Shown: piece after piece, positions 9,921 through 64,000 of the stretch
How positions within the stretch are numbered: position 1 is the first letter of the stretch
Layout: each line of letters opens with the position of its first letter
Assembly (NCBI GenBank): GCA_963805945.1
Contig: CAWDVP010000001.1
Location: forward strand, 32,001-96,000
Direction: 5' to 3'
Origin: Vulcanimicrobiota bacterium
GTDB lineage: Bacteria > Vulcanimicrobiota > Vulcanimicrobiia > Eremiobacterales > Eremiobacteraceae
DNA length: 64,000 nt
The notes under the pieces: model-generated
What the model saw: the letters and a program-made list of their open reading frames with translations, nothing else
The model's database searches: none
What the model was told of the DNA's origin: nothing
Made by a program: the position numbers and the translations under genes

Positions 9921-9921
9921 T

Positions 9922-44493: not shown

Positions 44494-44598
44494 GTCCGGA
44501 GAACGAGCCTCATCGCCGGATTGGTTGCGCTCGGCGTCGCGACATTCCTTATCGGACGAGGGGCTGGCCCGTGGTGGCGGAACTGGGATGAGGAGAAC

Positions 44599-47649: not shown

Positions 47650-50600
47650 ACGACGGTCCGATGATGGAGTTTCCCGAGCTTCGATCGGGCACTACAGCAC
47701 TAGAGTCGACGAGCGAACTCACGACCGAGCAGCAGGCGGCAGCGGAGCACGTCCTCAACCGGCCGGCGATCGTCGATGCAGGCGCCGGCACCGGGAAGAC
47801 GCACACGATCATCAATCGCGTCGCGTATCTCGCGCGCAGCGGCATCTGCGCCGCAGACAAGATCTTGTTGCTCACCTTCGCGCGGAAGGCCGCCGCGGAA
47901 CTGCGTCGGCGCGTGCTGGAGCGCCTCGGCCCGGACGTCGAGCCGCCGCACTGCTCGACGTTCCACGCGTTCGCGGCCAACGTGCTCGCCGACCACGCGT
48001 ACGAATTGCAGGTGTCGCCCGATGCGACCGTCATCGAGGACATCGATGCGCGCCTTGAATTCCGCTCGGCGTTCGACGAGGTCATCCACAGCGACCATGA
48101 GGACGCGGACGCCCTGCCGCTGCGCCCGGCGCAGCGCGATCAGCTTCGCGACGGTCTGTTCGCGATCGCGCAAAGGCTCAAGGAGCAGGCGATCAAGGTC
48201 GACGACTTCGAGCGTCGAGCGCTCGCCGCCGCTGACGCCATCGAGCGCATCCCGTTCCGGGAGATCCGGCCGGAAGGCAAGACGAAGAAGCCGCGCAACC
48301 CAGTGGCGCAGACCACTGACGCTCGCTTGCGCGTGGAAGCGGAGGATGCGCGAGCACGCGCCCGGGCCGCCGCCAAGATCTTCCGTCGCTACGAAGAACG
48401 GCTTCACAGGCGTCACGCGCTGACGTACGCCGACCTTCTGCTCCTCGCCCGCGACGGCATCGAGCGCAATCCCAGCCTCGCCAGCCGACTGCGCGGGCGC
48501 TATCGGCATTGCATCGTCGACGAGTTCCAGGACACCGATGAGGCGCAGTGGCGCTTCTTGGCCACGCTGTTCGGCGCAGAGCTCGAGAACGTGACCGCGG
48601 TAGGCGATCCACGCCAGAGCATCTACGGCTTCCGCGGCGCCACGCCGGGGAACGTGACGAAGTTCGCGGGCCTGCCGAACGCCGTGCGGTACGCTCTGTC
48701 GGAGAATCGCCGCTCGCGTCAGGAGATCCTCGACTTCGCGCACGCCGTCATCGGCGAGGTGTCGGAGGATGACGCGCCGCTGCGCGCGCAGCGCGGCGCG
48801 GCCGGCGCGCAGATCGTCCACGTCTCGAGCGCGTGGACGTTCGAGGACGGCGCCAAGCGCAACGCCGATGCCAACCGCGTGGCGCAGGCGGATGCGGTGG
48901 CGCGGCTCATCCGAGCGCGCCTTGCGCGGGGCGGTATCGCACCGCGCGACGTCGCGATCCTCTCGCGCAACAAGACGCAACTGCAGCCCTTCACTGCAGC
49001 GCTGAACGCCGCGGGCATCCCCTATCGGCTCTTGGGAGGTGCCGGGTTCTACGAGACCAGCGAGATCCGCGACGCCCTCGCATGGCTGCGCCTGCTCGCC
49101 GATCCGCTCGACGGCCAGGCCGCAGCGCGCGTGTGCGCGTCTGCCGCTTGCGGACTCACCGATGCGGCGACGGCGGAGCTGGCCGCCGGCCTGCCGAGAG
49201 ACGAGACGGGCTTCGCCCGCCGTCTCTTCGTCGAGCCGATCCCGGAGACGCTCGACGCCGACAGCCGAGCCCGCATCGAGCGCGTTCGATCAACTATCGA
49301 TGCGTTGGAGCCGTACGCGGCGGCGCCGCTTTCAGCTTCCATGCCCGTCGTCATCGGCGTCACCGGCCTCGCGCACGAGCGCGCCGGCGGCGAGCAGGCG
49401 AGCGCGAACCTGCGCAAACTTCTCCGTCTGGCGACCGATTTCGTCACCCGCAACCGCGAGGCGCAAGCGATCGATTTCGTGCATTACGTCGATGAGCTTG
49501 CGCGGATCGAATTCGACGATCGCGAAGCGGATGCTCCGGCCGACGATGCGGTCACGATCATGACGGCCCACGCGGCGAAGGGATTGGAATGGCCGGTCGT
49601 TTTCATCATCGACGTATGGCCTACGAATTTTCCGACGTCGTTGGTCACATTGGATGAAGCGACCGGCGCGCTGCTATGCCGCGAGGGCCGCGACGATACG
49701 CCGCTCTTCCATATCGAGGTGGCGCGGCGTCATCCCGATGCGCGCGGCATGATCCCGCACGAGGACGATAAGGAGTCAGGGCCGAGCGACGAGGAACGCC
49801 GTCTCTTCTACGTCGCGCTCACGCGCGCCAAAGACGAGCTGTACATACTCGGCGGCCGCTCGTACCGCGGCAAGAATCCGAGCGGTCGCACGCATGTCTT
49901 CGTGGAGGAAGCGGAACGATGGCTTGCGACGCAGGGGTGGGAGGTCGACGAGCCGATAGATGACGCCACTCCGGCAATACCGCGATCAGCCGATCTCGCG
50001 CTCGAAACGCCGCAAACGCCCACGCCGAGCGCCGATGCACGGTCGAGTGAACTCGACCGCTCCATAGCCGACCCGCGACAGACGCAGGTCGGTGCGCTGC
50101 AACTCTCGTTTTCGTCACTGCACGCCTTCGAGCGGTGTCCCCGCAGTCTCACGTACGCGATGGTCATGCGGCTGCCTGATCTACGCGTGGGCAGAAAGGC
50201 CGACTCGGACGAGACCGGCGACGGCGAAGCGCGAAGAGACGCATCCGCTCCCGGTGCGCTCATGGCCGATGACTACGGTCGCATCGTGCACCGCGCACTC
50301 GAGCGCTGGTCGGGTGCACGCATGCACGGCGACGGCGTGCAGACGCCCGAGACGTATGTCGCCCAAGCGATATCCGACCTTCGGCTGCGCCTCAAGGCCG
50401 CCGAAGTCAAACGCGCCTCGGCGGACGTGCAGGCGGCGATGACCGCCCTTGCGGCGTGGCGCGTCGAGCACGCGGAAGCGCCGTTTTCGATGCAGTATGA
50501 CGACGTGGTCGTCAAGGGCTATATCGACCTCATCGCCCGCGATCCGCACGGCAGCGCCGTCGTGCTCGACTACAAGACCGGCACGACCGCGGCGCGGGAA

Positions 50601-50876
50601 TACGCGCTCCAGCTCGGCATCTACCGAGAAGCGGCACGACGCGTGTACGACGTCGCGGATGCGGCATGCATCATCGGTAGATTCGCCGACGGCGGCTTTT
50701 CGCTCGAGACGGTCGACGTGCCGGACGTGGCGCTGGTGCGCGGGAGGATCGCCGCCGTCGCGACGGGCCTACGCGACCGCGATCTCACACCGCGCCCCGG
50801 CGACTGGTGCTACACCTGCCAGTATCGGGCGGCGCCCTGCGACGCTTATCCGGCGGCGAAGGATCGCGGCAGCTAG
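47646..50876 (+). CDS. UvrD-type helicase fused to a PD-(D/E)XK nuclease (AdnB/AddA-like)
   Basis: AGAGTGKT, DEFQD, VGDPRQSIYGFRGA, EERRLFYVALTRA; CPRS...GYIDL..DYKTG..QLGIY...CYTCQYRAAPC; ATGA overlap with the upstream gene. Confidence 0.92.
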   Translation: MNDGPMMEFPELRSGTTALESTSELTTEQQAAAEHVLNRPAIVDAGAGTGKTHTIINRVAYLARSGICAADKILLLTFARKAAAELRRRVLERLGPDVEPPHCSTFHAFAANVLADHAYELQVSPDATVIEDIDARLEFRSAFDEVIHSDHEDADALPLRPAQRDQLRDGLFAIAQRLKEQAIKVDDFERRALAAADAIERIPFREIRPEGKTKKPRNPVAQTTDARLRVEAEDARARARAAAKIFRRYEERLHRRHALTYADLLLLARDGIERNPSLASRLRGRYRHCIVDEFQDTDEAQWRFLATLFGAELENVTAVGDPRQSIYGFRGATPGNVTKFAGLPNAVRYALSENRRSRQEILDFAHAVIGEVSEDDAPLRAQRGAAGAQIVHVSSAWTFEDGAKRNADANRVAQADAVARLIRARLARGGIAPRDVAILSRNKTQLQPFTAALNAAGIPYRLLGGAGFYETSEIRDALAWLRLLADPLDGQAAARVCASAACGLTDAATAELAAGLPRDETGFARRLFVEPIPETLDADSRARIERVRSTIDALEPYAAAPLSASMPVVIGVTGLAHERAGGEQASANLRKLLRLATDFVTRNREAQAIDFVHYVDELARIEFDDREADAPADDAVTIMTAHAAKGLEWPVVFIIDVWPTNFPTSLVTLDEATGALLCREGRDDTPLFHIEVARRHPDARGMIPHEDDKESGPSDEERRLFYVALTRAKDELYILGGRSYRGKNPSGRTHVFVEEAERWLATQGWEVDEPIDDATPAIPRSADLALETPQTPTPSADARSSELDRSIADPRQTQVGALQLSFSSLHAFERCPRSLTYAMVMRLPDLRVGRKADSDETGDGEARRDASAPGALMADDYGRIVHRALERWSGARMHGDGVQTPETYVAQAISDLRLRLKAAEVKRASADVQAAMTALAAWRVEHAEAPFSMQYDDVVVKGYIDLIARDPHGSAVVLDYKTGTTAAREYALQLGIYREAARRVYDVADAACIIGRFADGGFSLETVDVPDVALVRGRIAAVATGLRDRDLTPRPGDWCYTCQYRAAPCDAYPAAKDRGS
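47673..47695 (-). repeat. REP family C copy in the helicase N-terminus
   Basis: Reverse complement GTAG-TG-CCCGATC-GAA-GCTCGGG; encodes PELRSGTT. Confidence 0.8.
50041..50065 (-). repeat. REP family A copy in the helicase-nuclease linker
   Basis: GGTCGAGT-GA-ACTCGACC-GCTCCAT; encodes RSSELDRSI. Confidence 0.9.
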
Positions 50877-51676
50877 TTCTGGCTCGCTCCGATGCCCCAC
50901 TTGCGCTGCCACGTGGCGAGCATGTCCGACTTGTCCATCTCGGTGATCTGGTCGGACACCCACTTGGCCAAAGCGCCGTCGCCTTTCTTCGTGGCGACGC
51001 CGTACGGCTCGACGCTGTAGCGCTCCGGCAAGATGACGGTCCGTTGGTCTTGCTGGGCGTAATATCGTAGGATCGAGCTGTCCGTCGACATCGCCTGGAC
51101 CTTGCCGCCTTGCAAGGCGTTCAACACCAACGCGTAGGTGTCGAACGCGGCGAACGTGAGGAGCGTGTCCGTGCCGGCTTTCGCCATGAGGGCGCTCGCG
51201 GTGTCGGTGTCCTTGGCGATGCCTATCGGCTTGCCGCTCAGGTCGGCCAGCCCCTTGATGTTGGATCGTTTCTGGACCAGCAGCGCGATGCCATCGGTGA
51301 AATAGGGTGGGCTGAAATCGAAGACGATCTTGCGTTCGGGCGTCACGCTGAAGGTCGCGATCAACATGTCCACCTCGCCCGCGTCGAGCAAGGTGCCGCG
51401 CGTCTGCGGCGTCACCGCCATGAAGCTGACCTTCCCGGCGTCACCGAGCAGCCGTTTGGCGAGCTCGTGTGCGATGTCGATCTCGTAGCCTTCGTACTGC
51501 TCCGTCTTCGGATTCAGATATGAGAACCCCAACACATCAGCCTTGACGCCGACGTTGAGCGTCCCCCGCGTGCGGATGACGGATAGCGAATCGGCGCTCG
51601 CCGGTCGCGCGAACATCAGTCCGATCGCGAACGCGAGCGTGATGAGCGCGTAAGCGCTTGCGCGGAATTGCCTCAT
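50873..51676 (-). CDS. Polar amino acid (Glu/Asp-type) ABC substrate-binding protein
   Basis: GGAGG RBS; GTLNVGVKAD, GYEIDIA, ATFSVTPERK, EPYGVA. Confidence 0.9.
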   Translation of the reverse strand: MRQFRASAYALITLAFAIGLMFARPASADSLSVIRTRGTLNVGVKADVLGFSYLNPKTEQYEGYEIDIAHELAKRLLGDAGKVSFMAVTPQTRGTLLDAGEVDMLIATFSVTPERKIVFDFSPPYFTDGIALLVQKRSNIKGLADLSGKPIGIAKDTDTASALMAKAGTDTLLTFAAFDTYALVLNALQGGKVQAMSTDSSILRYYAQQDQRTVILPERYSVEPYGVATKKGDGALAKWVSDQITEMDKSDMLATWQRKWGIGASQN

Positions 51677-51814
51677 GTGTCCCTCCCGGCGTCTCTCATA
51701 GGTGCGCACGGCTGTTCTTCGAAGTCACCATTCCGCGCCTGCGGGGCCTCACGACAGGATTCCTTTCGCACGTCGGAAACCCATCGGCGAGCCTCCCTCC
51801 ATGTGAATCGAGCA

Positions 51815-54043
51815 ATGCCGCAAGAACAGCCGTCGGGTACCAACAAGCTGCTGGCCAGCGTCGTGCCGGGGCTGGCGCTCGCCGCGGTCTTCTTCCATCT
51901 CGGCTATGCTGCGGCGAGCGCGCAACCCGCGCTGCACACCGCCCTGCTGCCGCTCGGGCTCGGTTCCTATCTGCTCGGGTTCCTCGCGCTCATCGGGTCG
52001 CTGTCGGCGCGGAGCATCTGGGCGGCGCGCATCCTCCCGGGCCTGTGCGTCGTCGCGTTCATCATCTCGATCGCGATCAATCACCTGGTCAATCCCGCCG
52101 TCGTAAACCCGTCGTATGAGAAATACCAGAGCGATTCGCTCGCCTTCAGCGCCTATTCCGCCCAACTCGTGCTCGAGGGAAGAGACCCGTACACCGAGAG
52201 CATGGCACCGGCGTTCGAACGCTTCCACCTGTCGCCGACGGTCTACACGCCGACGATCGAGGGCGGCACGATCCTCAGCGAACCCTACCCGGCGCTCAGC
52301 TTCTTGATCTACGTCCCTTTCATGGCGATGCACGTGCCGAGCATGATCTGGGTGGATATCGGGTTCCAGATCATCAGCATGCTGCTCATCCTCGTGCTCG
52401 TCCCTGCCCAGACGCGCATCTACTTCGGCCTCTTCTTCTTGCTCATCCCTGAATATCTGAGCTTCGCGGTGAGCTCGGCGACCGACGTGCTGTGGCTGCC
52501 GTTCATGATCGGCGTCGCCGCGACGTGGGACCGGCGCCCGCAGCTGTGCGCCATCCTGCTGGGCCTGGCGTGCGCGATGAAACAGGAGCCGTGGTTCATC
52601 GTGCCGTTCGCGCTCATCTACTGGTGGAAGACGAGCGCTCCGGACGCGGCGCTGGGCACGACGCTGCGACGGCTCGGCTATCTGAGCGCGGCGTTCCTCG
52701 TGCCGAACCTGCCGTTTTTGCTCTGGCATCCGTCGGCGTGGCTCGAGGGCGTCCTTAGCCCGTTGCTGTCTCACGCCGTGCCGCTGGGCAGCGGGCTCAT
52801 CCAGCTCCAGACGAGCGGGCTCATCACGCTGCCGCTGGGCGTCTACACCGCGCTCTGGGTCGCCGCATTCGTCATCTGCGTCGCGGCGTACGCGCGCTGG
52901 ACCGATACGCTGCGCTGGCTGCCCTTCGCGGCGCCGGCGATCGTGTTGTTCTTCAGTCCGCGCTCGCTGCAGAACTACTTCATCTACTGGCCGCTGGTGC
53001 TCGGCGTCTATGCCGCCGTCGCAGCAAGCGAGGCGCCGCCGAAGCTGTACGCGATCCCGTCACCGAGATTGGCCGGCCGCGTCGCGGTGCTGGCGCTCGC
53101 GGGCCTCGCCTCGCTCGTCTTGCTCATCGGCGCCACCGCGGCGGCGGGTGAGCGCATCTCACTCGACGTCAAGCATGTCGGCGTCGACGCCGATACCGGC
53201 CTCGTGAACAGCGTCGTGGTCGACGTCGAAAATCCGACGTCGAACGCCGAGACGCTGCATTTCGCGATCGCCAGTCCGCTCAACTCGCTCGTGTTCTGGC
53301 AGCCCGACCGCTACGAGGTGCCCGCGCACGGATCTGCGACGCTGCGGCTCACGCCGGGCGATCTCGCCGGCGAGGTGCCGCACTCGAAAGACATGGGCTT
53401 CCAAGTGGTCGCCTACGCGCCCCAGGACCGCGTCGCGTCGTATTCGCGCTCGCTGTCGTGGGAAGCGCCGGAGATGCGAGGCGTGCGCAATGGCCGTCTC
53501 GTCTCTGCGGTGAGCAAGTTCCAGACGCTGCCCACACGCGCGCCGTTGGCGTGGAGCGCTGAACCGCAGCCGTTCCTCGACGGGCGCCTGCGCGTCGTGA
53601 GCGAGGGGCCGTTCGGCAACGCGCTCCGCTTCCGCGTTGCGGCGCCGACAGCTTCGGAGTGGGCGATCGTGCAGTGCAGCCAGCCCTTTGTGATGACCGG
53701 TTCGCGCTTCACCTTCTGGCTCAGGCCGCGCCAAGGCGACGCGGGAGCGGCGAGCCCGCCGCAGACCTTCGGCGTCTCGTTCCGCGATGCGCGCGGCCGC
53801 AGAAGCTATTTCGTGGTCGATCCGCGGGTGCGCAGCGTCGCGCGGGTCGCGCGCGGCCGCGACGAGGTCTATCTGCTGCCGGGCCGCGTCGGCTCGTGGA
53901 ACCGCTACACGATCGATCTCGCGCGGCTGCCGGTATTCGCCGAGACGCGCGACAGCCCGCTCTCCGTCACCATCATCGCCGCGGCGCGGCGCGGGGCGCG
54001 CGGCTTTGCGGGCGGCGATTTCGGCGGCATCCTCGAGAACTAG
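51815..54043 (+). CDS. GT-C fold (GT87-like) membrane glycosyltransferase with a soluble C-terminal region
   Basis: About 12 TM segments; SD..A..GRDPY, YPALSFL, GLACAMKQ, FLVPNLPFL. Confidence 0.7.
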   Translation: MPQEQPSGTNKLLASVVPGLALAAVFFHLGYAAASAQPALHTALLPLGLGSYLLGFLALIGSLSARSIWAARILPGLCVVAFIISIAINHLVNPAVVNPSYEKYQSDSLAFSAYSAQLVLEGRDPYTESMAPAFERFHLSPTVYTPTIEGGTILSEPYPALSFLIYVPFMAMHVPSMIWVDIGFQIISMLLILVLVPAQTRIYFGLFFLLIPEYLSFAVSSATDVLWLPFMIGVAATWDRRPQLCAILLGLACAMKQEPWFIVPFALIYWWKTSAPDAALGTTLRRLGYLSAAFLVPNLPFLLWHPSAWLEGVLSPLLSHAVPLGSGLIQLQTSGLITLPLGVYTALWVAAFVICVAAYARWTDTLRWLPFAAPAIVLFFSPRSLQNYFIYWPLVLGVYAAVAASEAPPKLYAIPSPRLAGRVAVLALAGLASLVLLIGATAAAGERISLDVKHVGVDADTGLVNSVVVDVENPTSNAETLHFAIASPLNSLVFWQPDRYEVPAHGSATLRLTPGDLAGEVPHSKDMGFQVVAYAPQDRVASYSRSLSWEAPEMRGVRNGRLVSAVSKFQTLPTRAPLAWSAEPQPFLDGRLRVVSEGPFGNALRFRVAAPTASEWAIVQCSQPFVMTGSRFTFWLRPRQGDAGAASPPQTFGVSFRDARGRRSYFVVDPRVRSVARVARGRDEVYLLPGRVGSWNRYTIDLARLPVFAETRDSPLSVTIIAAARRGARGFAGGDFGGILEN

Positions 54044-55053
54044 GCGTTGGCGAGGCGGACGCCGGCGCCGAGCGATTGCAGCTTCGCGTAGGCGATCTCC
54101 CGGCGCATCGGCGCCATGCCGCAGTTGGTCGACGCGATGATCCGCTCGTCCGGCAGATGGCTCCGCGCCACCTCGATCACCGCACGTACGTCGTCGGCCG
54201 ATTCGACGACATCGCTCGCGACGTCGACCACGCCCACCGCGACGTCCTTGCCGCCGGCGAGCGCGAGCACCTCAGGCGGCACGCGCGAACCCGCCAACTC
54301 GATCGAGATCTCGTCGATCGCGCTGGCCGCGAGCAGCGGCATCAGCCGGCCGTACTGGTCCCACGTCGCGCCGAGCGAGCGCTTCCAGTCGACGTTCGCC
54401 TGGATGCCGTAGCCGTAGCACACATGCACCGCGGTGCGGCAGCGCGCGCCCTGCACGCACGCGTCAAGCGCCTCGATGCCCCATTGCGCCGCTTCCTCGA
54501 GATACGCGTTGAAGGCGGGTTCGTCGAGCTGCACGACGTCGACGCCGACCGAGACGAGGCTGGCGATCTCTTCTCGTTGATGAGCCCGGCGAATGCCATC
54601 GCGAGCGACTTGCGATCGCCGTAGTGCGCGTCGTGCACCGTATCCACGATGGTCATCGGACCGGGCAACGTGACCTTCAAGGCGCGCCGCGTGTGGCTGC
54701 GCGCGAAGGCGGCTTCGTCGAGGTGCACCGAGCCATGACGGCGGACTACGCCGGCGATGGTGGGCACGTCGGCCTGATAGCGATCGGCGCGGATCCCGCG
54801 CCGCACCATCTTGGTGAAGTCGACGCCCTCGATATGCTTCGAGAAAGCCGTGGACGAAATGCCTGCGCGATTGCTCGCCGTCGGTGACACAATCGATGCC
54901 GGCGCGTTCCTGCTCGAAGAGCGCCAGCCGCACGGCGTCGCGCTTCGCGTCGGCGAGTTCGGCGCCGTCGAGCCGCCACGCCGGCCAGAGCGTCTCGCTC
55001 TGCGCAAGCCAATGCGGTTTGGGAAGACTGCCGGCGATGGTGGAGCGTATCAC
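54040..55053 (-). CDS. Core (single-barrel) cobalamin-independent methionine synthase, MesD-like; frameshifts near 54840 and 54575
   Basis: AGSLPKP.WL, TDGEQ.R.HFV, LPGPMT, QLDEPAF, HVCYGYG, TNCGMAP (Zn ligands H-x-C...C). Confidence 0.85.
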   Translation of the reverse strand: MIRSTIAGSLPKPHWLAQSETLWPAWRLDGAELADAKRDAVRLALFEQERAGIDCVTDGEQSRRHFVHGFLEAYRGRRLHQDGAARDPRRSLSGRRAHHRRRSPPSWLGAPRRSRLRAQPHAARLEGHVARSDDHRGYGARRALRRSQVARDGIRRAHQREEIASLVSVGVDVVQLDEPAFNAYLEEAAQWGIEALDACVQGARCRTAVHVCYGYGIQANVDWKRSLGATWDQYGRLMPLLAASAIDEISIELAGSRVPPEVLALAGGKDVAVGVVDVASDVVESADDVRAVIEVARSHLPDERIIASTNCGMAPMRREIAYAKLQSLGAGVRLANA

Positions 55054-55063
55054 CGCGGCGCTG

Positions 55064-55519
55064 CTAGCGGCGTGCCTTGCCTGCGGTCGCCGGATTGCTC
55101 TCCAGCCGCGCCACGTCTTCGTCGTCCGCCGGCTGCGGCCGATCGCGCTGCGCGTCGACGATGCACAGGAAGCCGAACGGCGCATCGCTGTCGTTCACGA
55201 ATTGGTGGAGCGTCATCGGCGAGACGTAGACGTGGTCGAGATTCCGCAGCGCGTGCACGGTGTCGCCGACGATCGCGTAACCCTGGCCGCGGATCACCGT
55301 CACCGAGTGGACGTGCTCGTGCCGTTCCAACCGCGTGTAGCCGTGCGGCTCGACTTCGAAGTAGCGGACCTGGAAGAGCGCCGGCTCGCCGTCGCCGCCC
55401 GAGATGATGTGGCGCGTCACGCCGCGATAGCCGCCGCCCTCGGATTCGCCCTGCGCCTTGTAGCCCGCGGCCTCGACGCCTTCCCACGCGAAGTCAGCCG
55501 CGCGAAATGAATGCTTCAT
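55064..55519 (-). CDS. Cupin, similar to the R. rubrum methylthioxylulose-5-P methylsulfurylase-type cupin
   Basis: WEGV...YK, VTR, VRYFEV.P.G.T.LERHEHVH, HQF, FGFLCIVDAQRDRPQ. Confidence 0.8.
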   Translation of the reverse strand: MKHSFRAADFAWEGVEAAGYKAQGESEGGGYRGVTRHIISGGDGEPALFQVRYFEVEPHGYTRLERHEHVHSVTVIRGQGYAIVGDTVHALRNLDHVYVSPMTLHQFVNDSDAPFGFLCIVDAQRDRPQPADDEDVARLESNPATAGKARR

Positions 55520-56574
55520 GATCTCCCCGGATAGACGATGACCTTGAGCGCGTCGCCGGCGTCGGCGACCAAGCGATACGCCTCCGCGATCGAGTCGAGG
55601 CCGAAGCGGTGCGTGACCAGGCCCGCGAGCGGCAGGCCGTCGGCGAGCAGGGTGAGCGCCTCGCGCGTGTCGTTCGGACCCGCGGAATAGCTCGTGACGA
55701 CGCTGACGTCTTTGAAGTAGAAATCGTGGACCGGCAGCGGCCAGTATTCGGTGGCCTGCGTCGGCGTGAAGAGCACGATCGTGCCGCCGGGCGCGACGCA
55801 TTGCGCCGCCGCGCGCATCGCCTCTACCGAACCCGGACCCACGATGACGACGTCCGCGCCCTCGCCGTCGGTCGCGGCGAGCACCTGCTCGTGGAGCGGC
55901 GCGGCATCGACGTCGAACGCGAGATGCGCGCCGTGCTCGCGCGACCGTTCGAGGCGGCCGCGCACGCGGTCCGCGCTCATGATCAGTTCGGCGCCGCGGA
56001 AGCGCGCGAGCGCCACATGGAGCATGCCCATGATGCCGAGGCCGATGACGAGCACGCGATCGCCCGCACGCAGGTGAGCACGGCGCGCCGATTTCACCAC
56101 GGTCGCGAGCGGCTCGACGAGCGTCGCCCGATCGTCGTCGAGCGAGTCGGGGATGCGCAGCACGTCGGCGCGCACGTTCTCAGCGGAGACGATGGCGTAT
56201 TGCGCCATGCCGCCCGGCCGCAGCCTGGTCTTGCGCCACGTCTCGCACTGCACGTAGTCCTTGCGCTTGCAGCGCCGGCAGGTCATGCACGGCGCATGGT
56301 GATGGACGAAGACACGCTCGCCGGGCGCGAAAGGCTGGCCGCCGGTCGGCGCGGCGCCCTCGCCGCACGCCTCGACGATAGCGACGGGCTCGTGGCCGAG
56401 CACGAACGGCGCCTTGCGGTCGTTGTACCAGCCCATGACCTCGCCCGGGCAGATGCCGCACGCGGTGATGCGCACGAGCAACTCGCCGGGTTGCAGCGCG
56501 GGCAGCTCGACGTCGCGCACGGCGATGCCGCCTCCGCGTTCGTAGACTGCGGCCCGAGTCGTCGTTGGTTGCAT
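55516..56574 (-). CDS. Zn-dependent (MDR) dehydrogenase, sorbitol dehydrogenase-like
   Basis: CGICPGE, LGHE, CMTCRRC..C, VEPL, GLGIMG. Confidence 0.9.
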   Translation of the reverse strand: MQPTTTRAAVYERGGGIAVRDVELPALQPGELLVRITACGICPGEVMGWYNDRKAPFVLGHEPVAIVEACGEGAAPTGGQPFAPGERVFVHHHAPCMTCRRCKRKDYVQCETWRKTRLRPGGMAQYAIVSAENVRADVLRIPDSLDDDRATLVEPLATVVKSARRAHLRAGDRVLVIGLGIMGMLHVALARFRGAELIMSADRVRGRLERSREHGAHLAFDVDAAPLHEQVLAATDGEGADVVIVGPGSVEAMRAAAQCVAPGGTIVLFTPTQATEYWPLPVHDFYFKDVSVVTSYSAGPNDTREALTLLADGLPLAGLVTHRFGLDSIAEAYRLVADAGDALKVIVYPGRS

Positions 56575-56639
56575 TGGAAGTCCCGAGGTTCGCGCTCGAC
56601 GTTCGCTATCCCACCTTGGCTATGAGACTTTTGCAGCCC

Positions 56640-58028
56640 TCACCCGTTCAGGACCTCCAACGGTGCGGTATAGAAATCGCTCTTGTAGGCACGGCGGTAT
56701 ATGACGAGCGGGATGATGCCGAGGACGAGCAAGCCCACCGTGACCGCATCGGCGCGCCATCCGGCGGTGATGAGCTGCGCCACCACCACGATCCAGAGAA
56801 AGACGGCGGCGCCGACCGGCCATATCCCCTTGAGCACGAGCGCCCGGCGATCGGTGGCGAAAGAGCGCCGATAGTAGCGTGCGCACGCGATCGCCGACAG
56901 CCCGTAATAGAACGCGATGTAGATGCCGATGGCGTTGACGGATTCGTTGAGGACCTGTGAGATGCTCGCGCTTGCGGCTGCGGCCGCGAACAGCGCCAGC
57001 GAGATCACTCCCATCACGATGCTGCCGAACCACGGCGTCTGATAGCGCGGATTGAGCTCGGCGAAGCGCTCGCTGATCACGCGGTCGCGGCTCATCGACA
57101 TCAGCGTGCGGCTCACCACGAGCAGCGACGCCTCGAGCGTGCCGATCGTGCTCACGATGACGACGATCACGGCGATATCGCCCCAGGGTCTCGGCAAGAT
57201 CGCATTCGCGAAGACGTCGAGCAGGTTGGAGCCAGCATCTTGGATGGCGTGCACCGGCAGGACCATCTGGACGCTCACTTGCACGCCGATGAACAGCGCC
57301 AGCAGGATGAACATGCCCTGCAGGCCTGCGATGCCCGGCGCCCGGCTATGGTCGACGGTCTCTTCGGCCAGATTGGCGGTGACATCCCAGCCCCAGAAGT
57401 AGAACAATGCGACGAGCGCGCCCGCCATGACGGCGGCGAAGCCGCCCGCGGGATATGGCGAGAACCACGCAAGGGTGAAGGCGTTCGCGTGCCCTGCGGT
57501 GGCGGAGTGGACGATGCCGATGACAGCCAGCGCCGCGAGGCCGGCGATCTCGATGCCGGTCACGATCCGCTGGAAGTATGCGGTCGTGCGGATGCCGACT
57601 AGCACGACGACGTTGACGAGCACGAACCACACCGCGCCGACAGCGGTCACGGCCGCGATGTCGTTCGACAGGCGCGGCGCGAAGAGATCGAGCGTCGCCG
57701 ACGCCGCTGGCAGCGAGCCGGCGACCATGAAGATCGTATTGGCGACGAGGATCGACCAGCCGGCCAGAAATCCGAGATCTGGACTGAGCGCGCGGCCCAC
57801 CCACGCGTAGCCCGCACCGGCATCGGTTCGCCACGCGTTGAGATAGAAGTAGGCGATGGCGAGTCCGAACATCGCGACCGCGCCGAGCAGCAGCGCTCCC
57901 GGGCCGTACAGCCCGACGGCTGCGATGAGCGCGCCGGTGCTCACGGCGACGGAATTCGCCGGCGCTGTGCCGGCCACGGCGATCAAGACCGAGTCCAGCC
58001 GCGAGAGCGCGTTACGACGGAGCTCCAT
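56640..58028 (-). CDS. APC family amino acid/polyamine permease
   Basis: AGTAPA, FYFWGWD...LAEET, SRTL..MSRD, YQTPW; 12 TM. Confidence 0.9.
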   Translation of the reverse strand: MELRRNALSRLDSVLIAVAGTAPANSVAVSTGALIAAVGLYGPGALLLGAVAMFGLAIAYFYLNAWRTDAGAGYAWVGRALSPDLGFLAGWSILVANTIFMVAGSLPAASATLDLFAPRLSNDIAAVTAVGAVWFVLVNVVVLVGIRTTAYFQRIVTGIEIAGLAALAVIGIVHSATAGHANAFTLAWFSPYPAGGFAAVMAGALVALFYFWGWDVTANLAEETVDHSRAPGIAGLQGMFILLALFIGVQVSVQMVLPVHAIQDAGSNLLDVFANAILPRPWGDIAVIVVIVSTIGTLEASLLVVSRTLMSMSRDRVISERFAELNPRYQTPWFGSIVMGVISLALFAAAAASASISQVLNESVNAIGIYIAFYYGLSAIACARYYRRSFATDRRALVLKGIWPVGAAVFLWIVVVAQLITAGWRADAVTVGLLVLGIIPLVIYRRAYKSDFYTAPLEVLNG

Positions 58029-58029
58029 G

Positions 58030-59340
58030 CTAGCTCATCGCATCCAAGAAGCGGTACCATGCGCCGGCTGCGGGCACGAGCCACGAAGAGCTCATGCGCA
58101 GCCCCGCGGGCGACACCGGAAGCGGACGCATCAGCGGATCTGCAGCTGCGCCTGCACGACCGGCGCCGTCACCGCCCGAGATCGATGCGGCAAGCCGCGC
58201 GCCCAGGTGGGTCGCCAGCGCAACCCCGTGGCCTGCGTACCCGACGGCATAGTGGATCCCGTCAAGCACGCCGGCGTGCGGCAGCATGTCCAAAGTGAAA
58301 TCGATCGTGCCGCCCCATGCGTATTCCACCGCGGCGTCGCGCAGTTGCGGGAACACGGCGACCATGTCTTTGCGCAAGATGTCGACGCTTTCCGACAACG
58401 CGCGTTCGGATTCGGGGACGAACGACGCGCGCCCGCCGAAGAGCACGCGATCGTCAGGCGTAAGCCGGAAATAGTGGAGGAAGCGCTTGGAGTCGTACAT
58501 CATCCTGTTCCGCGGCGAGAGCTCGCGCGCGCGCGTCGTACCCAGCGGCTCCGTTGCGATGACATACGAGCCGATAGGCACGATGCGCCGCGTCAGCCAC
58601 GGCGATTCGGCGCCGGTGTAGGCGCCGGTCGCGACGATGACCTCGTTAGCCGCGAGGTCGCCGCGTCCGGTCGCCACGGTGAATCCGGCGGCGCCCGTGT
58701 TGCGCCGGGCGATGCGCGTCACTGGCGTGTTCTCGAGGACTGCGGCGCCCGAGCGACGGGCCGCTTGCGCTAGACCGTACACGAGTTTCGCTGGGTTGAC
58801 GCTTGCGCTTGCGTCGTCGACCATGCCGCCGTGATAGGCGCTCGATCCGACCTCATCATGCAGGTCCGCAGGTGGCACGAGCCGGACGTGCCGTCCGAAT
58901 GCCTGCGCCAGGAGCGCCGCTTCTCGCTCGAACTGCGCGAAGTGAGACCGCTTTGACGCGAGCGCGAGATGGCCGCAGCGGGCGAAATCGCACGCGATCC
59001 GTTCCTCGCCCACGAGCCGCTCGACGAAGTCGATCGCTTCGATCGACGACGCGTCAAGGCGACGCGCGGCGTCGAGCCCGTAGCGCGCGATGAGCTCGTG
59101 CGGTGAGAGCTTGAGCCCGCTCAACACCATGCCGCCGTTGCGCGAGCTCGCTCCCCAACCGACTTCGTGCGTCTCCAGCACGGTCACGCGAGCGCCGAGC
59201 TTGGTAAGCGTCAGCGCGGCGGAGAGCCCGGTCAGGCCGGCGCCCACGATCGCGACGTCCGCCGCCGCCGGCAGGTCGACGGGGCCGCGCGTGTCTCGCC
59301 CGGCCTCGACCGTCTCTCGCCAGTAGGCGAGCCGCTTCAA
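58030..59340 (-). CDS. FAD-dependent oxidoreductase, PuuB/OrdL-like
   Basis: IVGAGLTGLS, GASSRNGG, YFRLTPD.RVLFGG, YAWGG, GYAGHGV. Confidence 0.88.
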   Translation of the reverse strand: MKRLAYWRETVEAGRDTRGPVDLPAAADVAIVGAGLTGLSAALTLTKLGARVTVLETHEVGWGASSRNGGMVLSGLKLSPHELIARYGLDAARRLDASSIEAIDFVERLVGEERIACDFARCGHLALASKRSHFAQFEREAALLAQAFGRHVRLVPPADLHDEVGSSAYHGGMVDDASASVNPAKLVYGLAQAARRSGAAVLENTPVTRIARRNTGAAGFTVATGRGDLAANEVIVATGAYTGAESPWLTRRIVPIGSYVIATEPLGTTRARELSPRNRMMYDSKRFLHYFRLTPDDRVLFGGRASFVPESERALSESVDILRKDMVAVFPQLRDAAVEYAWGGTIDFTLDMLPHAGVLDGIHYAVGYAGHGVALATHLGARLAASISGGDGAGRAGAAADPLMRPLPVSPAGLRMSSSWLVPAAGAWYRFLDAMS

Positions 59341-59377
59341 GCCCGGAGCCGCAGCAGCGTGGCGATCACGTGCGGGG

Positions 59378-60007
59378 TCATACGCGGTACAATCCGCGCC
59401 ACCTCGGCGCGAGCACGAAGAACAACTGTGAGAGCACGATCGCCGCGATGCTCCAGTAGGTGTTGAAGACGCAGAGCGACGCGCTCAACGCATAGAGCAC
59501 CTGGCCGGTGATGATACGGCGTTCGATTGCCCGGCCCACGTCGACAGCCGAATCGTCCTTGAGCAGCCCCGCGCGGGTCGCATACCGCCAACTGACCCAG
59601 AGCGTGCCCCCGAGCAAGACGATGTTGAGCCAATAGATGACCACCGCGAGGCGATAGGTGATGAACTCCGCCAGCAGCGCGGTGGAGAACGGCATCAGCG
59701 CGACCACGAGCAGGAAGGCGATCTGCATCCACGTGAGGTCGCGATTGCTGCGGGCGAAGCTGCTGAGCTGCGTCTGCTGGCCGACCCAGAAGATGCCCAG
59801 CGTCATGAAGCTCATGAAATATGCGAGCAGCCGCGGCGACAGCACGAGCAGGGCGCTCAGCAGGTCGCCTTCGCTATGGATCGCCGTGCTCACCGGCACG
59901 CGCAGGTCGAGCACGAGCAATGTCATCGCGATGGCGAAGACGCCGTCGCTCAACGCAGAAAGCCGCTCCAGGCTTTGACCTGCGACCACGTTGTACAGCG
60001 GTTTCAT
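59378..60007 (-). CDS. TMEM175 family potassium channel
   Basis: RLSALSDGVFAIAMTLLVL signature; YFMSF..LG.FW; PFST. Confidence 0.9.
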   Translation of the reverse strand: MKPLYNVVAGQSLERLSALSDGVFAIAMTLLVLDLRVPVSTAIHSEGDLLSALLVLSPRLLAYFMSFMTLGIFWVGQQTQLSSFARSNRDLTWMQIAFLLVVALMPFSTALLAEFITYRLAVVIYWLNIVLLGGTLWVSWRYATRAGLLKDDSAVDVGRAIERRIITGQVLYALSASLCVFNTYWSIAAIVLSQLFFVLAPRWRGLYRV

Positions 60008-61044
60008 ACCCACTCCGGCGCGCCCGGCTCGGGGATAAGCGCGTACTTGAAGCCGCGACGGTGGTCGAGGTCATCGAAGACGTCCGGCAGATTCGAGAGC
60101 GGCACGATCCCGGACACCAGCGGCCGCAACGCGAGTCGCCCGGTGACGAGCAGGTCACGCGCCTCGCGCACGTCGGCCGGGGTGAAATGAAAGGCACCGA
60201 GACAGGTCAGCTCGTCGTAATGCAGGCGCGTCGCGTCCAGCGGCACCTCGCTGCCTGACGGCAGGCCGCCGAAGAACAGCGTGCGGCCGCCCGGACGGGT
60301 GAGCGCGAGCGCCTGGCGCCAGGCGTCCGGCGACCCCGCGCATTCGATGGCGGCGGCATAGCGCTGCGACAAAGGCACGCCGCCGGCCGCGCGCGCATCG
60401 ATCGTCTCGTCGGCGCCGAGCGCGCGCGCGATCGCGAGACGTTCCTCGCTGCGCGCGATCACGGTCGCGCGCACGCCCGCATGGCGTGCGTAGAGCAGGT
60501 GCAACAGGCCGATCGTGCCGGCGCCGATGATCGCGACGTCGCGCGGCGTCGGACGCTCGGCGTTGGCGCGGCGCAGCGCGCTCCAGCCGTGCACGATGCA
60601 GGACAGCGGCTCCAGGAACGCCGCTTCGATGTAGCTCAGCCCGACCGGCTTCTTGAAGACGTTGCGCCGCACGATCTTCCGCGGCAGCACGATGTGGTCC
60701 GCATACGCCCCGAGCGCGACGTCGTCGAAGATATGCTCGCACAAGTTCTCGTAACCGTCGCGGCAGCGCGCGCACTGCTCGCACGGCGCGGTCTGCACCC
60801 ACATGATCGCGTCGCCCGGCTTGAAGCCGGTCACGTCGGGGCCCACCGCCACGATGTCGCCGGACGCCTCGTGTCCGAACGGACCGTAGGCGAGCTTCGG
60901 GTGGCCGCGGCGATACGTCTTCAGATCCGTGCCGCACGTGAGAGCCGCGCGCACGCGCACGAGGACTTCACCCGCTCCGGGCGCGGGCGTCGGCGCTTCG
61001 TGCCATGCAAGCGTCCTGGGCGCGGTCAGGCGCGCTTGGCGCAT
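60004..61044 (-). CDS. Zn-dependent (MDR) dehydrogenase, sorbitol dehydrogenase-like
   Basis: ALTCGTDLKTYRRGHP, FGHE, CEQCARC..C, LEPL, GAGTIG. Confidence 0.9.
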   Translation of the reverse strand: MRQARLTAPRTLAWHEAPTPAPGAGEVLVRVRAALTCGTDLKTYRRGHPKLAYGPFGHEASGDIVAVGPDVTGFKPGDAIMWVQTAPCEQCARCRDGYENLCEHIFDDVALGAYADHIVLPRKIVRRNVFKKPVGLSYIEAAFLEPLSCIVHGWSALRRANAERPTPRDVAIIGAGTIGLLHLLYARHAGVRATVIARSEERLAIARALGADETIDARAAGGVPLSQRYAAAIECAGSPDAWRQALALTRPGGRTLFFGGLPSGSEVPLDATRLHYDELTCLGAFHFTPADVREARDLLVTGRLALRPLVSGIVPLSNLPDVFDDLDHRRGFKYALIPEPGAPEWV

Positions 61045-61048
61045 CCGC

Positions 61049-61940
61049 TCACTTGATGACCTGCACGCCGGCGGCGCGTTCGTACAGCTCCGAGACGACG
61101 CTGTAGTCGAGTTTGCCGCCGCCTTCGGCCGAGGCTTGCAGGTAGAGCTGGCCCGCAAGCGCCGCCTCGATCATCGGCACGTGCATCTGCTTGGCCGCGT
61201 CGAGCGCGGCGTTGAGGTCCTTGCGCAGCAGGTCGAGCGCGAAGCCGCCCTCGTGGCTACCTTTGAACCACGTGTTCGGCAACCACTTGTCGAGGATGTA
61301 GTTCGAGCCGGTGGCGGTGCCGATCACCTTGCGCAGCAGGTCGATGTCGGCACCCGACTTCTTGGCGAAGGTGAGCGCCTCCACATCGGCGATCATCACG
61401 ATGGCGATGATGATCTGATTCACGAGTTTGAAGGTCTCACCCATGCCCGCGGGGCCGACGAGAGTCGGCGTGCCCATCGCGCGGAACACCTGCTCGCATG
61501 CGGCGAACGTCGCCGCGTCGCCGCCCGCCATGATCGTGAGCTCGCCCGTTGCGGCGCGCGCGGGCCCACCGGAGACCGGGGCGTCGAGCATCTGGATGCC
61601 GCCGCTGCGCAGGCGTTCGTGGAACCCGCGCGAGGCGACCGGCGAGATCGTCGACATGTCGATGACGTAGCCGCCGCTGCGCATACCTGCGGCGACGCCC
61701 CGCTCGCCGAAGAGCGCTTCCTCTACCTGCGGGCTGTCGGGCACCATGGTGACGACTGCATCGCTGGCGGCGGCGACCGCGGCCGGATCCGCCGCTTCGA
61801 CCGCGCCGGCTTTTGATGAGACGCTCGACGCCCGCGCGCGAGCGGTGCGCGCACACGCGCAAGGCGAAACCCGCCCGCAACAGCGACGCGCCCATGGGTT
61901 CGCCCATCGCGCCGATACCGATGAGGCCGATGTTCTTCAT
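61049..61940 (-). CDS. Beta-hydroxyacid dehydrogenase (HIBADH/tartronate semialdehyde reductase family), frameshift near 61810
   Basis: IGIGAMG, DMSTISP, LDAPVSGG, KLVNQ, KDL. Confidence 0.9.
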
Positions 61941-62009: not shown

Positions 62010-64000
62010 TCAGTAGCGCTGCGTCACCGTCAAGCGCAGCGCGGCGCCCTGCAGCGAGTACGCATCGGTCGGCATGGTGCCGCCGGGAACTGGATACGGC
62101 ACGCCGGCGCCCGCCAGCGTGAACCTATCGTTGAATTGATTTGTGAGATTCGTGCCGGCCAGGCTGAGTTCGGTGTGGCCGAACGTCATGCCCGCGCTCG
62201 CATCGAGGACCACGTAGGCCGGGCGGTTGAGCTCATTGTTCGCGCTCTCGTAGGTGCCTGCGATCGCGTAGCCGAGGCCGTGCGCCGGTTGCCGGTCCAG
62301 CGCCAGCCGCGCTTTATGCAGCGGAATGCCCTGGAACTGCTCGCCCGGGATCATCGGCGGCGCAGCGGGGTTGATGAGCGCCGGATCGCCCGTCGGGAAC
62401 GCGGAGTTGATGCCGTAGCTCGCGTGCAGCGCGACGCCGTCCGCCAGAGGTTGATCCGCGCGCAACTCGACGCCCTGGTAATACGATTGGCCGACGTTGC
62501 CGAGGAACGTGAGCGATCCGTCGGCTGCGACGGTCTGCACACCAGCGTCATCGATGAGCGTGCGATAGAGATTGAGCGTGCTGATCGTCGCCAGCCGCCC
62601 GCTGCCGAAGCGGTGCTCGCGCCAAGATCGTATTCGACCGAGCGCTCTGTCTGCAGCGACGGGTTGAAAGCGAGTTCGGTGAGCAGCGGCGCCCGAAAAC
62701 CCGTGCCGAACGAGGCGCGCACCACGGTGTTCGGCGGCGTCCACACGACGGCGAACCGGGGATCGACGCTGGTGCCGAACGTGCTGAACGAGCTGTAATA
62801 CGCCGCCAGCGTGTAATGCAGGTACTGGCTGGCGCTCCACGTGTAGCGCCCGACGATCCAGCGCTCGATCGAGTATTGCGTCGGCGGGCCCGGCGCGAAC
62901 GCGTCGGGCGCGGTGAGCCGTTCTCTGCGCAGATCGAGCGAGACGGCGATCGTCGCGTCCGTCGGACCCGGCAGCGCGCGCTCGTATTGCGCGATGTCGT
63001 CGTCGACGCGATCGGCGTCGTTGAGCAGATACGGGTTGAGCGTCGGACTGATGTTCTCGGTCGACTGGTTGCTGATATTGGTGAGATGGCTGATGGTGAG
63101 CGTCGCGGGCGCCAGGCCGTTCGCCCCGTGCCGGCCGAGCGGCAGCTGCAGGTCGAGACCATACGCCGGCGCGGCGGTCAGCACGGCGGCGCCCGCGTGC
63201 GTTCACCGCGGTGAAGGGCGCGCCCGGCGCGGTGTTGCTCGGATCATCGGGTGCGCTGAGCGGCGCTGAGAGGTTGCGATAGGCGGCGGTGTCGCGAAAG
63301 GTCGCTTCGATGAATCCGGTATTGCCTTCAAGCGAGTAGCGGACTTTTGCGAGCGTCGCGGTGCCATCGATGTTGGAGCCGACAAGAGCCGTCTGCGCCG
63401 GCGCGCCCGGACCGGGCGTGGCGATCGTGATGGGATAGTCGTAGACCTCGCCTTGCGTCGTATAGCGGCGGTACAGCAGCGCATAGCCGAAGCGCTGATC
63501 GGTGCCGGTCGCGGCGATGGTCTCGCCCGCCGAGTCGAAGCTGCCGAAGGACGCGCGGACGAGACCATGGTCTTGGGCGGTGGGTTCGATGGTGCGGAAG
63601 TTGATCGCGCCGCCTTCGGAATCGGCGCCCACCAGCGACGATGGTCCGACGCCGTACACGATCTGCACGCCGGCGAACTCCGACGGGTCGAGCAGTTCGA
63701 GGTCGAAGTCGCCGGTGTTCTCGTTGTTCACCTGGTGACCGTCGATGTCGACGATGGTCTCGGACGGATCCGGACCGCGCAGCGCCGCGGTCTGCGGCAG
63801 ACCCGGTCGCACCGCCCGCTTGGCGCACCATGGTCACCGCGAGCTGCTGCCCGAGGACGTCGCTCAGCTGCGCGCCCCCTTGCGACGCGAGCGCCTGGGG
63901 ATTGATATCTGTCGTGGGCGCCGATGCCCTCGAGAGCGCGCTCGAGCCGTTCACCGTGACGGCGCCCAGCATGGCGACGCCGTTGGCGGCGGCGCGCGCG
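62010..64000 (-). CDS. TonB-dependent receptor (5' end outside the window; several frameshifts)
   Basis: Plug LRGPDPSET.V.IDG, GGAINF; SFGTGFRAP, GTNLTN; C-terminal aromatic residue. Confidence 0.85.

Follow-up and report, generated by a model that had tools for sequence, protein, structure and literature searches.

We analysed a 64,000-nucleotide window from the genome of a Vulcanimicrobiota bacterium (GenBank assembly GCA_963805945.1, contig CAWDVP010000001.1, positions 32,001 to 96,000 of the forward strand). It contains a run of co-oriented genes encoding two Zn-dependent medium-chain dehydrogenases (hereafter MDR2 and MDR1, in the order of transcription), a small cupin and a methionine synthase. 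Open reading frames (ORFs) in the window were listed and annotated with Pfam and NCBIfam, and solved relatives were identified by a PDB search using HMMER alignments. A first-pass annotation of this DNA had singled out these four genes. All four were recovered on the minus strand at the positions it gave, together with the 4-nt ATGA overlap between the MDR1 stop codon (TGA) and the cupin start codon (ATG), and the methionine synthase start 10 nt past the cupin stop. It had omitted three co-oriented genes that separate MDR2 from MDR1, as well as a frameshifted dehydrogenase gene of the HIBADH type located 4 nt upstream of MDR2. Adjacent genes are spaced by -10 to +65 nt along the whole run, and searching the whole window with Rfam gave no matches, including no SAM or other riboswitch.

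The best solved relatives of the cupin were 3ibm (E 1.7e-36), 3jzv (E 3e-29), which was deposited as Rru_A2000, and 3kgz (E 4e-26). A manual count found 54 identities among the 139 positions aligned with 3jzv. The motifs that the first-pass annotation had listed for this family (W.GV, VTR, RYFEV, LERH.H.H, HQF and GFLC.V.A.RD.PQ) are all conserved between the window cupin and 3jzv. The LERHxHxH...HQF segment and the C-terminal GFLCxVxAxRDxPQ segment are also kept across 18 homologues, among which H67, H69, H71, H105, Q106, C119, R125 and D126 are invariant. A large protein search with the cupin returned 368 relatives, the named ones being mostly proteins of Eremiobacterota metagenome-assembled genomes (MAGs), and one relative with 60% identity bears a JGI methylsulfurylase KEGG-style name. 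Judged by these alignments, the window cupin is a true homologue of the Rhodospirillum rubrum methylsulfurylase Rru_A2000. That enzyme acts on 1-methylthio-D-xylulose-5-phosphate, which it receives from the DeepYkr RuBisCO-like protein (RLP) Rru_A1998, and the in vivo acceptor of the methylthio group is glutathione (excerpts of PMC4334135, PMC5893883 and PMC6302742).

We scanned one genome per prokaryote species with the cupin alignment. This resulted in 159 matching stretches, 108 of which encode a relative, and the best 80 were kept, corresponding to 79 distinct loci. The 79 loci were analysed by tblastn with the window proteins, ORF clustering, and Pfam searches of cluster representatives. 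Five unpublished genomes (G005 with locus L011, G011 with L017, G025 with L033, G178 and G228) are included in the counts; their removal shifts each tally by at most 3, and no conclusion depends on them alone. ORF cluster c14 was rejected as the antisense of MDR1, and clusters c42 and c26 are probably antisense as well, based on tblastn and Pfam in this high-GC DNA.

At 35 of the 79 loci, the cupin has an MDR1-type neighbour. The three genes directly adjoin each other in the order MDR2, MDR1, cupin on one strand at 19 of these loci, MDR1 precedes the cupin at 7 more where MDR2 is either displaced or beyond the contig, and both dehydrogenase genes adjoin the cupin on the opposite strand at 9 Solirubrobacterales loci. 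At ten other loci the gene directly adjoining the cupin is an RLP gene instead of an MDR. The MDR2-MDR1 pair accompanies the cupin family under six or more phylum labels, among them Eremiobacterota/Vulcanimicrobiota, Bacillota, Actinomycetota and Binatota, as well as Planctomycetota and Armatimonadota, where the pair lies elsewhere in the genome. Overlaps of 4 nt are common, occurring between MDR1 and the cupin in the window and between MDR2 and MDR1 at L099 and L041. The two dehydrogenases belong to distinct subfamilies, with 34-85% identity to their own positional counterparts and 25-36% to the other subfamily; MDR2 orthologues directly upstream of MDR1 in other phyla are 34-78% identical.

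The first-pass annotation had tied its proposal to linkage of the dehydrogenase pair with the cupin and with mtnA in other genomes. Both kinds of linkage were found, the former in the 19 direct trios and the latter in Solirubrobacterales, an order that includes cultured strains. Gene order is mtnA>MDR1>MDR2 at L100, and at L040 the cupin is followed by MDR2<MDR1<mtnA. L041 contains a nucleoside hydrolase, MetN/MetI/NlpA-type transporter genes and the cupin, with MDR2, MDR1 and an APH-family (MtnK-like) kinase on the opposite strand. L035 combines the cupin, an MDR and mtnA with genes for an alpha/beta hydrolase (MetX-like), a CoA-binding protein and a Cys_Met_Meta_PP enzyme (MetY-like). Cultured Solirubrobacter strains carry the genes at L040, L041 and L048, with S. 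deserti and S. phytolaccae represented by L041 and L048. More broadly, mtnA scored over its cut-off in 44 of 50 genomes searched (33 of 37 within G001-G037).

We searched for PF00016, the RuBisCO family to which RLPs belong, in all 79 cupin genomes. An MDR1-type gene is present in 40 of these, and none of the 40 has an RLP-type match; three have a single full-length PF00016 match of 441-451 bits that scores like true RuBisCO. MDR1 is lacking in 38 genomes; a PF00016 match occurs in 35 of them, all of which are without MDR1 at E<=1e-45. L014, a locus truncated at the cupin, was left unclassified. The same threshold was applied in searching for MDR1 and MDR2 in the 43 genomes that have no MDR beside the cupin and a locus not cut there. 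MDR1 was found away from the cupin in 5 of the 43, with MDR2>MDR1 adjacent to each other in G252, G274 (Planctomycetota label) and G275 (Fimbriimonadales label), and MDR1 directly after mtnA in G022. G275 has two family cupins: one (L099, 9983-10357) follows MDR2>MDR1 and is 35% identical to the window cupin, and the other (L076), elsewhere in the genome, groups with RLP-linked cupins.

The same either/or pattern recurs within the host phylum, where 125 of 201 genomes encode the cupin and 126 have an MDR1-type gene at E<=1e-50. The cupin and MDR1 are adjacent in the host family. In the largest family of the phylum, none of 5 genomes searched that have both cupin and MDR1 has a PF00016 match. 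For the 14 genomes of that family with the cupin and without MDR1, the presence of an RLP was predicted beforehand, and 13 were found to have an RLP-type gene (44-78 bits). The RLP gene adjoins the cupin in G061, G180, G187, G215, G220 and G243 and lies ~0.8 kb away in G171; the sole exception of the 14, G089, has only a RuBisCO-scoring match. The occurrence of both RLP and the MDR pair within one bacterial family is the pattern expected of non-orthologous displacement. The anti-correlation between the MDR pair and RLP that the first-pass annotation had anticipated therefore holds across the 79 genomes and again within the host phylum.

The host genome (2.3 Mb in 8 contigs, 82% complete) encodes a phosphorylase for 5'-methylthioadenosine (MTA), mtnP/MTAP, at 300 bits and dxr at 385 bits, both over their cut-offs. 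The gene mtnA is present in three frames (171, 157 and 44 bits, with a sum of ~373) separated by two frameshifts on contig C8 (41244-42205). Thus, the two salvage genes on which the first-pass annotation had made its proposal depend are both present, although mtnA is split. Their neighbours, purine genes and an aminotransferase, are uninformative. Two PF01053 (Cys/Met-PLP) genes score 523 and 451 bits, which does not resolve them to O-acetylhomoserine sulfhydrylase. The RuBisCO family (PF00016), MtnN and the class II aldolase family (MtnB, Ald2) were not found in this 82% complete genome, so the earlier remark that the gene cluster lacks an RLP extends to the host assembly as a whole. Since mtnP and mtnA are present and neither the RuBisCO family nor the class II aldolase family was found, 5-methylthio-D-ribulose-1-phosphate (MTRu-1-P) can be made, but its known consumers (RLP, MtnB and Ald2) were not found.

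In both dehydrogenases, the catalytic Cys and the His-Glu are retained, as are the structural zinc site of four Cys and the GxGxxG motif. The best PDB matches of MDR2 were 4ej6, the ketose reductase 1e3j and the galactitol-1-phosphate 5-dehydrogenase 4a2c (96 bits), while those of MDR1 were the alcohol dehydrogenase 4cpd, 4ej6, threonine dehydrogenase and sorbitol dehydrogenase. An acidic residue at the end of strand beta2 usually indicates NAD as the cofactor. Of 28 MDR1 orthologues, 27 have Asp at this position and one has Glu, which indicates an NAD-type site. MDR2 has no acidic residue there and a nearby Arg in 21 of 26 orthologues, with Asp instead in 5 Solirubrobacterales sequences, which suggests an NADP-type site. 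A conserved basic loop motif in MDR2, CGTDLKTYRRGHPK, is suggestive of a putative phosphate-binding site.

Taken together, we consider it fairly probable that MDR2, MDR1 and the cupin are a conserved three-enzyme module that runs the MTA-isoprenoid shunt without RLP. MTA would be converted to MTRu-1-P by MtnP and MtnA, whose genes lie elsewhere in the host genome. The C2 carbonyl would then be reduced, probably by MDR2 with its NADP-type site, to give 5-methylthio-D-arabinitol-1-phosphate, and C4 would be oxidised, probably by MDR1 with its NAD-type site, to give 1-methylthio-D-xylulose-5-phosphate. The cupin, with a thiol, would remove the methylthio group, supplying DXP (1-deoxy-D-xylulose-5-phosphate) to Dxr and methanethiol to methionine synthesis. 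The arrangement of the genes as MDR2, MDR1, cupin would match the reaction order, and the pair would be the two-redox-step equivalent of the 1,3-carbonyl shift performed by the DeepYkr RLP in R. rubrum. Because an NADPH-linked reduction would precede an NAD+-linked oxidation, the isomerisation would effectively run one way. By our own derivation, C2 reduction followed by C4 oxidation of D-ribulose-1-phosphate derivatives should give the D-xylulose-5-phosphate configuration via D-arabinitol-1-phosphate, in agreement with the stereochemistry argued in the first-pass annotation and with the activity of the MDR-family D-arabitol-phosphate dehydrogenase. The first-pass annotation had proposed such a replacement of RLP by redox steps. 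Comparative genomics strongly supports the replacement itself, while its substrate, intermediates, step order, cofactors, stereochemistry and products are what we infer.

The remaining genes of the run, together with those just described, are given in Table 1.

Table 1. Genes and ORFs of the minus-strand run in the window
Feature	Position	Strand	Annotation
Weak TonB-receptor-like ORF	62010-63833	-	Arg/Ala-rich middle, seemingly out of frame
HIBADH / tartronate-semialdehyde-reductase-type dehydrogenase, two frames	61049-61940	-	Pfam NAD_binding_2 + NAD_binding_11; NCBIfam TIGR01505 196 bits vs cut-off 340
MDR2, Zn-dependent medium-chain dehydrogenase, polyol/threonine dehydrogenase type	60004-61044	-	Pfam ADH_N + ADH_zinc_N
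TMEM175/DUF1211-like membrane protein	59378-60013	-	Pfam PF06736
DAO-type FAD-dependent oxidoreductase (pipecolate-oxidase / aminophosphonate-oxidoreductase-like)	58030-59340	-	Pfam DAO 234 bits; NCBIfam matches all far under cut-offs
APC-family amino-acid permease	56640-58028	-	Pfam AA_permease_2 + AA_permease
MDR1, second Zn-dependent medium-chain dehydrogenase	55516-56574	-	Pfam ADH_N + ADH_zinc_N
Cupin, Rru_A2000 family (methylsulfurylase of 1-methylthio-D-xylulose-5-phosphate)	55064-55519	-	Pfam Cupin_2; PDB 3jzv
MesD-like core (folate-domain-less) methionine synthase	54040-55053	-	GTG start; Pfam Meth_synt_2 sole domain

The three genes between MDR2 and MDR1 were considered as pathway members and rejected. 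Homologues of the TMEM175-like protein (judged at >=50% coverage), the DAO-type oxidoreductase and the APC permease were absent from all 79 loci, and at the insertion site the close relative L007 instead encodes a DUF4760 protein, an M48 peptidase and two DUF308 proteins. These two observations mark the three genes as an insertion specific to the host genome. The tight run described by the first-pass annotation is therefore real in its spacing and does not amount to a single functional unit. As judged by conservation across loci, the core of the module is MDR2, MDR1 and the cupin, with the three inserted genes and the MesD-like synthase outside it. HIBADH-type homologues occur upstream of MDR2 in 14 of the 79 loci (L007, L009-L012, L015, L018, L026-L029 and L031-L033), all of Eremiobacterota type, in some of which an SBP_bac_5 solute-binding gene lies between the HIBADH-type gene and MDR2; the HIBADH-type gene is absent from the module in other phyla.

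In the host, the HIBADH-type gene is interrupted at a run of four A (61811-61814). Given an assembly of 8 contigs and 82% completeness, the frameshifts in this gene, mtnA and the TonB-receptor-like ORF suggest uncorrected indel errors, with gene decay as the alternative. Two soil-metagenome runs carry only 5-8% of sampled words, no RNA run being listed, and the contigs derived from them represent relatives that are 90-99% alike. No contig from these two runs spans the HIBADH frameshift site.

Other neighbours of the cupin vary among lineages. At L019, L020, L022 and L024, which have Bacillota labels, the gene directly after the cupin encodes an NADP-binding protein resembling saccharopine dehydrogenase (cluster c24, ~380 aa), which could be one more pathway member specific to that lineage. 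At L086, in a genome where the cupin lies apart from the MDR pair, a rhodanese-domain protein (9161-10096, minus strand) is encoded ~0.6 kb downstream of the cupin and may act in the handling of thiols or persulfides. In the window, a 791-aa ORF with high GC content at third codon positions (51668-54043, plus strand) is convergent with the methionine synthase and matches no Pfam or NCBIfam family. Downstream of the cupin region are an AddA-like UvrD/PD-(D/E)XK helicase-nuclease (47622-50876, plus strand) and a 1055-aa partner ORF (44482-47649, plus strand); these two genes (clusters c3 and c8) are syntenic downstream of the cupin in many Eremiobacterota loci.

The best solved relative of the methionine synthase is 3rpd, the MesD structure, at 255.9 bits with the central 80 residues unaligned. 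Conserved between the two are the Zn ligands, the Ser, Glu and Asp that bind homocysteine, and the Tyr of CYGYG that is specific to MesD (residue list from excerpts of PMC7857596). The synthase scored 325.6 bits against NCBIfam NF006589, which has a cut-off of 392, and the excerpted text of Price et al. 2021 (PMC7857596) sets the MesD threshold at >=390 bits to ACIAD3523. Taken as proxies for ACIAD3523, the NF006589 and 3rpd scores point to a protein that would fall under the MesD threshold. MesX/DUF1852 was found neither in the cluster nor in the host genome, but the search control matched none of 14 control genomes, and with a genome that is 82% complete this means that genome-wide absence of MesX is not established. 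Only 4 of the 79 loci (L007, L008, L010 and L014; 59-62% identity), all close relatives, have a MesD-like gene after the cupin, so the synthase is best described as a lineage-specific neighbour. A functional link between synthase and cupin is possible but unsupported, and the first-pass suggestion that the adjacent synthase connects the route to methionine regeneration is correspondingly weak.

Several observations weigh against an RLP-independent shunt performed by MDR2, MDR1 and the cupin. Many of the surveyed genomes are related MAGs, so that the counts overstate the number of independent events. Three of the 79 cupin genomes (G049, G251 and G261) have neither RLP nor MDR1, and lone MDR1-like genes with 40-42% identity occur in cupin-less genomes, where their neighbours are uninformative. 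The two dehydrogenase genes are 3.4 kb apart in the window. In the largest family of the host phylum, MDR2>MDR1 are together (47% identity each) but ~0.8 Mb from the cupin. Direct linkage of the pair to mtnA or mtnK was found in Solirubrobacterales alone, and in the host both mtnA and the HIBADH-like gene are frameshifted, whether by assembly error or gene decay. A search among longer proteins returned five clusters (P0123-P0127, 526-540 aa) in which the cupin is fused to a RuBisCO_large (RLP) domain and no MDR-cupin fusion. All NCBIfam equivalogs scored far under their cut-offs against the MDRs, the best being threonine dehydrogenase (Tdh, 137.7 versus 458 bits) and GatD reaching 108 versus 550 bits; the MDR substrates therefore cannot be named from sequence alone. 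Finally, a cupin tree of 80 rows, which include neither Rru_A2000 nor RPA2170, separates an RLP-linked side from an MDR-linked side with split support of 91/90. On the RLP side are 33 RLP rows, 2 MDR rows and 1 row with neither, against 39 MDR, 2 RLP and 3 unclassified rows on the MDR side, and the labels require 4-5 changes. In this tree the window cupin belongs to the MDR-linked side, sister to the RLP-linked cupins. Identical substrate specificity is for that reason not assured, and MDR-linked cupins may use another isomer or substrate than Rru_A2000. The longer-protein search also returned one protein with a SnoaL-like domain fused to the cupin (P0122).

The tree and the absence of a characterised equivalog among the MDRs would both fit a pathway of different chemistry, in which the MDR pair and its cupin clade salvage the sulfur of MTA or methylthioribose through another intermediate and yield a carbon product other than DXP. 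Candidates for such an intermediate include another pentulose-phosphate isomer, an unphosphorylated methylthio-pentitol and a 5-deoxy sugar. RLP produces xylulose and ribulose isomers at 3:1 in vitro, so several isomers are accessible (excerpts of PMC6302742). We nevertheless regard this explanation as unlikely, given that the window cupin shares its metal and C-terminal motifs with Rru_A2000, that Dxr is present in the host, and that complementarity with RLP is simplest if both routes supply the same cupin substrate. Complementarity also bears on the idea that the MDRs play an accessory part in sulfur or methionine metabolism, reducing 2-(methylthio)acetaldehyde or handling thiol adducts, with an unrecognised enzyme making the cupin substrate in RLP-less genomes. 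Alcohol dehydrogenases of unknown identity have been invoked in dihydroxyacetone phosphate (DHAP) shunts (excerpts of PMC5893883), and adjacency reflects co-regulation and says nothing on reaction order. However, a strict either/or with RLP is unexpected for an accessory enzyme, two distinct MDR subfamilies that are always paired fit two sequential steps, and a host in which no class II aldolase was found would produce no DHAP shunt aldehyde. We judge such accessory roles very unlikely. An ordinary catabolic cluster for an imported polyol or amino compound, with the cupin and methionine synthase present by chance, might be suspected from the APC permease and DAO oxidoreductase inside a tightly packed, operon-like run. 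This explanation is hard to credit when the permease, oxidase and TMEM175-like genes occur at none of the 79 related loci, the closest relative has unrelated genes in their place, and the MDR2-MDR1-cupin trio is conserved across phyla.

The proposed module also touches on lineages without Dxs. Dxs was not found in the 82% complete host genome or in 11 of 15 other genomes of the host family, and 5 of 17 genomes in a family sample scored over the cut-off. Dxr was present in all 11 Dxs-less relatives tested, whereas HMG-CoA reductase was found in 1 of 10 relatives tested (G184) and not in the host. Dxs was also missing from 18 of 19 genomes in family f6, 5 of 5 in f19 and 16 of 16 in f20, and Dxr was present in 13 of 13 genomes tested from these three families, bringing the total to 24 Dxs-less genomes besides the host. 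Four Dxs-less genomes with the cupin and without RLP were reported in PMC10663253 and left unexplained there. The shunt could contribute to DXP supply in Dxs-less lineages. However, genus g51 lacks the cupin as well as Dxs and HMG-CoA reductase, which means that the shunt cannot be the general explanation of Dxs loss and that another source of DXP must exist.

A broader reading, which we hold to be distinctly unlikely as a whole, is that MDR2-MDR1 would be a general redox isomerase of ribulose-1-phosphates to xylulose-5-phosphates that makes DXP without Dxs. MTA-derived MTRu-1-P would lead to DXP with the help of the cupin, and 5-deoxyribulose-1-phosphate derived from 5'-deoxyadenosine would lead to it directly. 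The pair would then be the major or only source of DXP in many Dxr-positive Eremiobacterota without detectable Dxs, including the host genus, and in the host lineage the methylthio or methyl group set free would be taken back into methionine by a MesX-less, MesD-like synthase.

If the three-enzyme module functions as proposed, two ordinary-looking dehydrogenases would have displaced RLP in a non-orthologous manner, constituting an undescribed bacterial route for recycling a by-product of S-adenosylmethionine. It would account for cupin-only genomes that earlier surveys left unexplained, such as the four Dxs-less genomes of PMC10663253, and assign a function to two unannotated MDR subfamilies. 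Salvage of methionine and sulfur would reach six or more phylum labels, the soil phylum Eremiobacterota among them. The result also bears on how bacteria with the methylerythritol phosphate (MEP) pathway obtain DXP when they lack Dxs. The route is testable in cultured Solirubrobacter strains, and RLP mutants of R. rubrum and Rhodopseudomonas palustris exist.

To our knowledge, the MTA-isoprenoid shunt is known only with RLP as its signature isomerase. A literature search, with subscription journals and supplements outside its scope, found no description of a dehydrogenase-based route to the cupin substrate and no paper joining Eremiobacterota with methionine salvage. The excerpted text of a 2026 review (PMC13474568) likewise contains no dehydrogenase-based route to this substrate. 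The shunt of R. rubrum and R. palustris comprises MtnP, MtnA, the DeepYkr RLP (Rru_A1998/RPA2169) and the cupin (Rru_A2000/RPA2170). The system described here has in common with it the homologous cupin, MtnP, MtnA and Dxr in the host, and nearby methionine-salvage genes in Solirubrobacterales. It differs in that no RLP was found in the host or in the 40 MDR1-carrying genomes, and two Zn-dependent MDRs adjoin the cupin in RLP's place. Unlike the enediol isomerisation catalysed by RLP, the proposed carbonyl shift would be an NAD(P)-linked redox process.

The window synthase resembles the oxygen-dependent core methionine synthase MesD/MesX in being a folate-domain-less core MetE with the same ligands and the Tyr of CYGYG (excerpts of PMC7857596). 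MesD needs MesX, whereas the window synthase has no adjacent MesX and instead follows a methylsulfurylase-type cupin. The DHAP shunt (MtnP or MtnN-MtnK, MtnA and Ald2) and classical MtnB-D salvage start from the same MTRu-1-P made by MtnA, but depend on the class II aldolase family (Ald2, MtnB) that was not found in the host genome. As for the dehydrogenases, the MDR-family polyol-phosphate dehydrogenases, such as D-arabitol-phosphate dehydrogenase and the galactitol-1-phosphate 5-dehydrogenase 4a2c, share their fold, zinc sites and Rossmann motif with MDR1 and MDR2. The nearest solved relatives include 4a2c, ketose reductase and sorbitol dehydrogenase, yet scores are low, as with the 96 bits to 4a2c. 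D-arabitol-phosphate dehydrogenase converts D-arabitol-1-phosphate to D-xylulose-5-phosphate, a reaction that the proposed second step would mirror on a methylthio-substituted substrate that is hypothetical here. Xylose reductase and xylitol dehydrogenase together provide a known two-enzyme redox isomerisation, of which the proposed MDR pair would be the counterpart.

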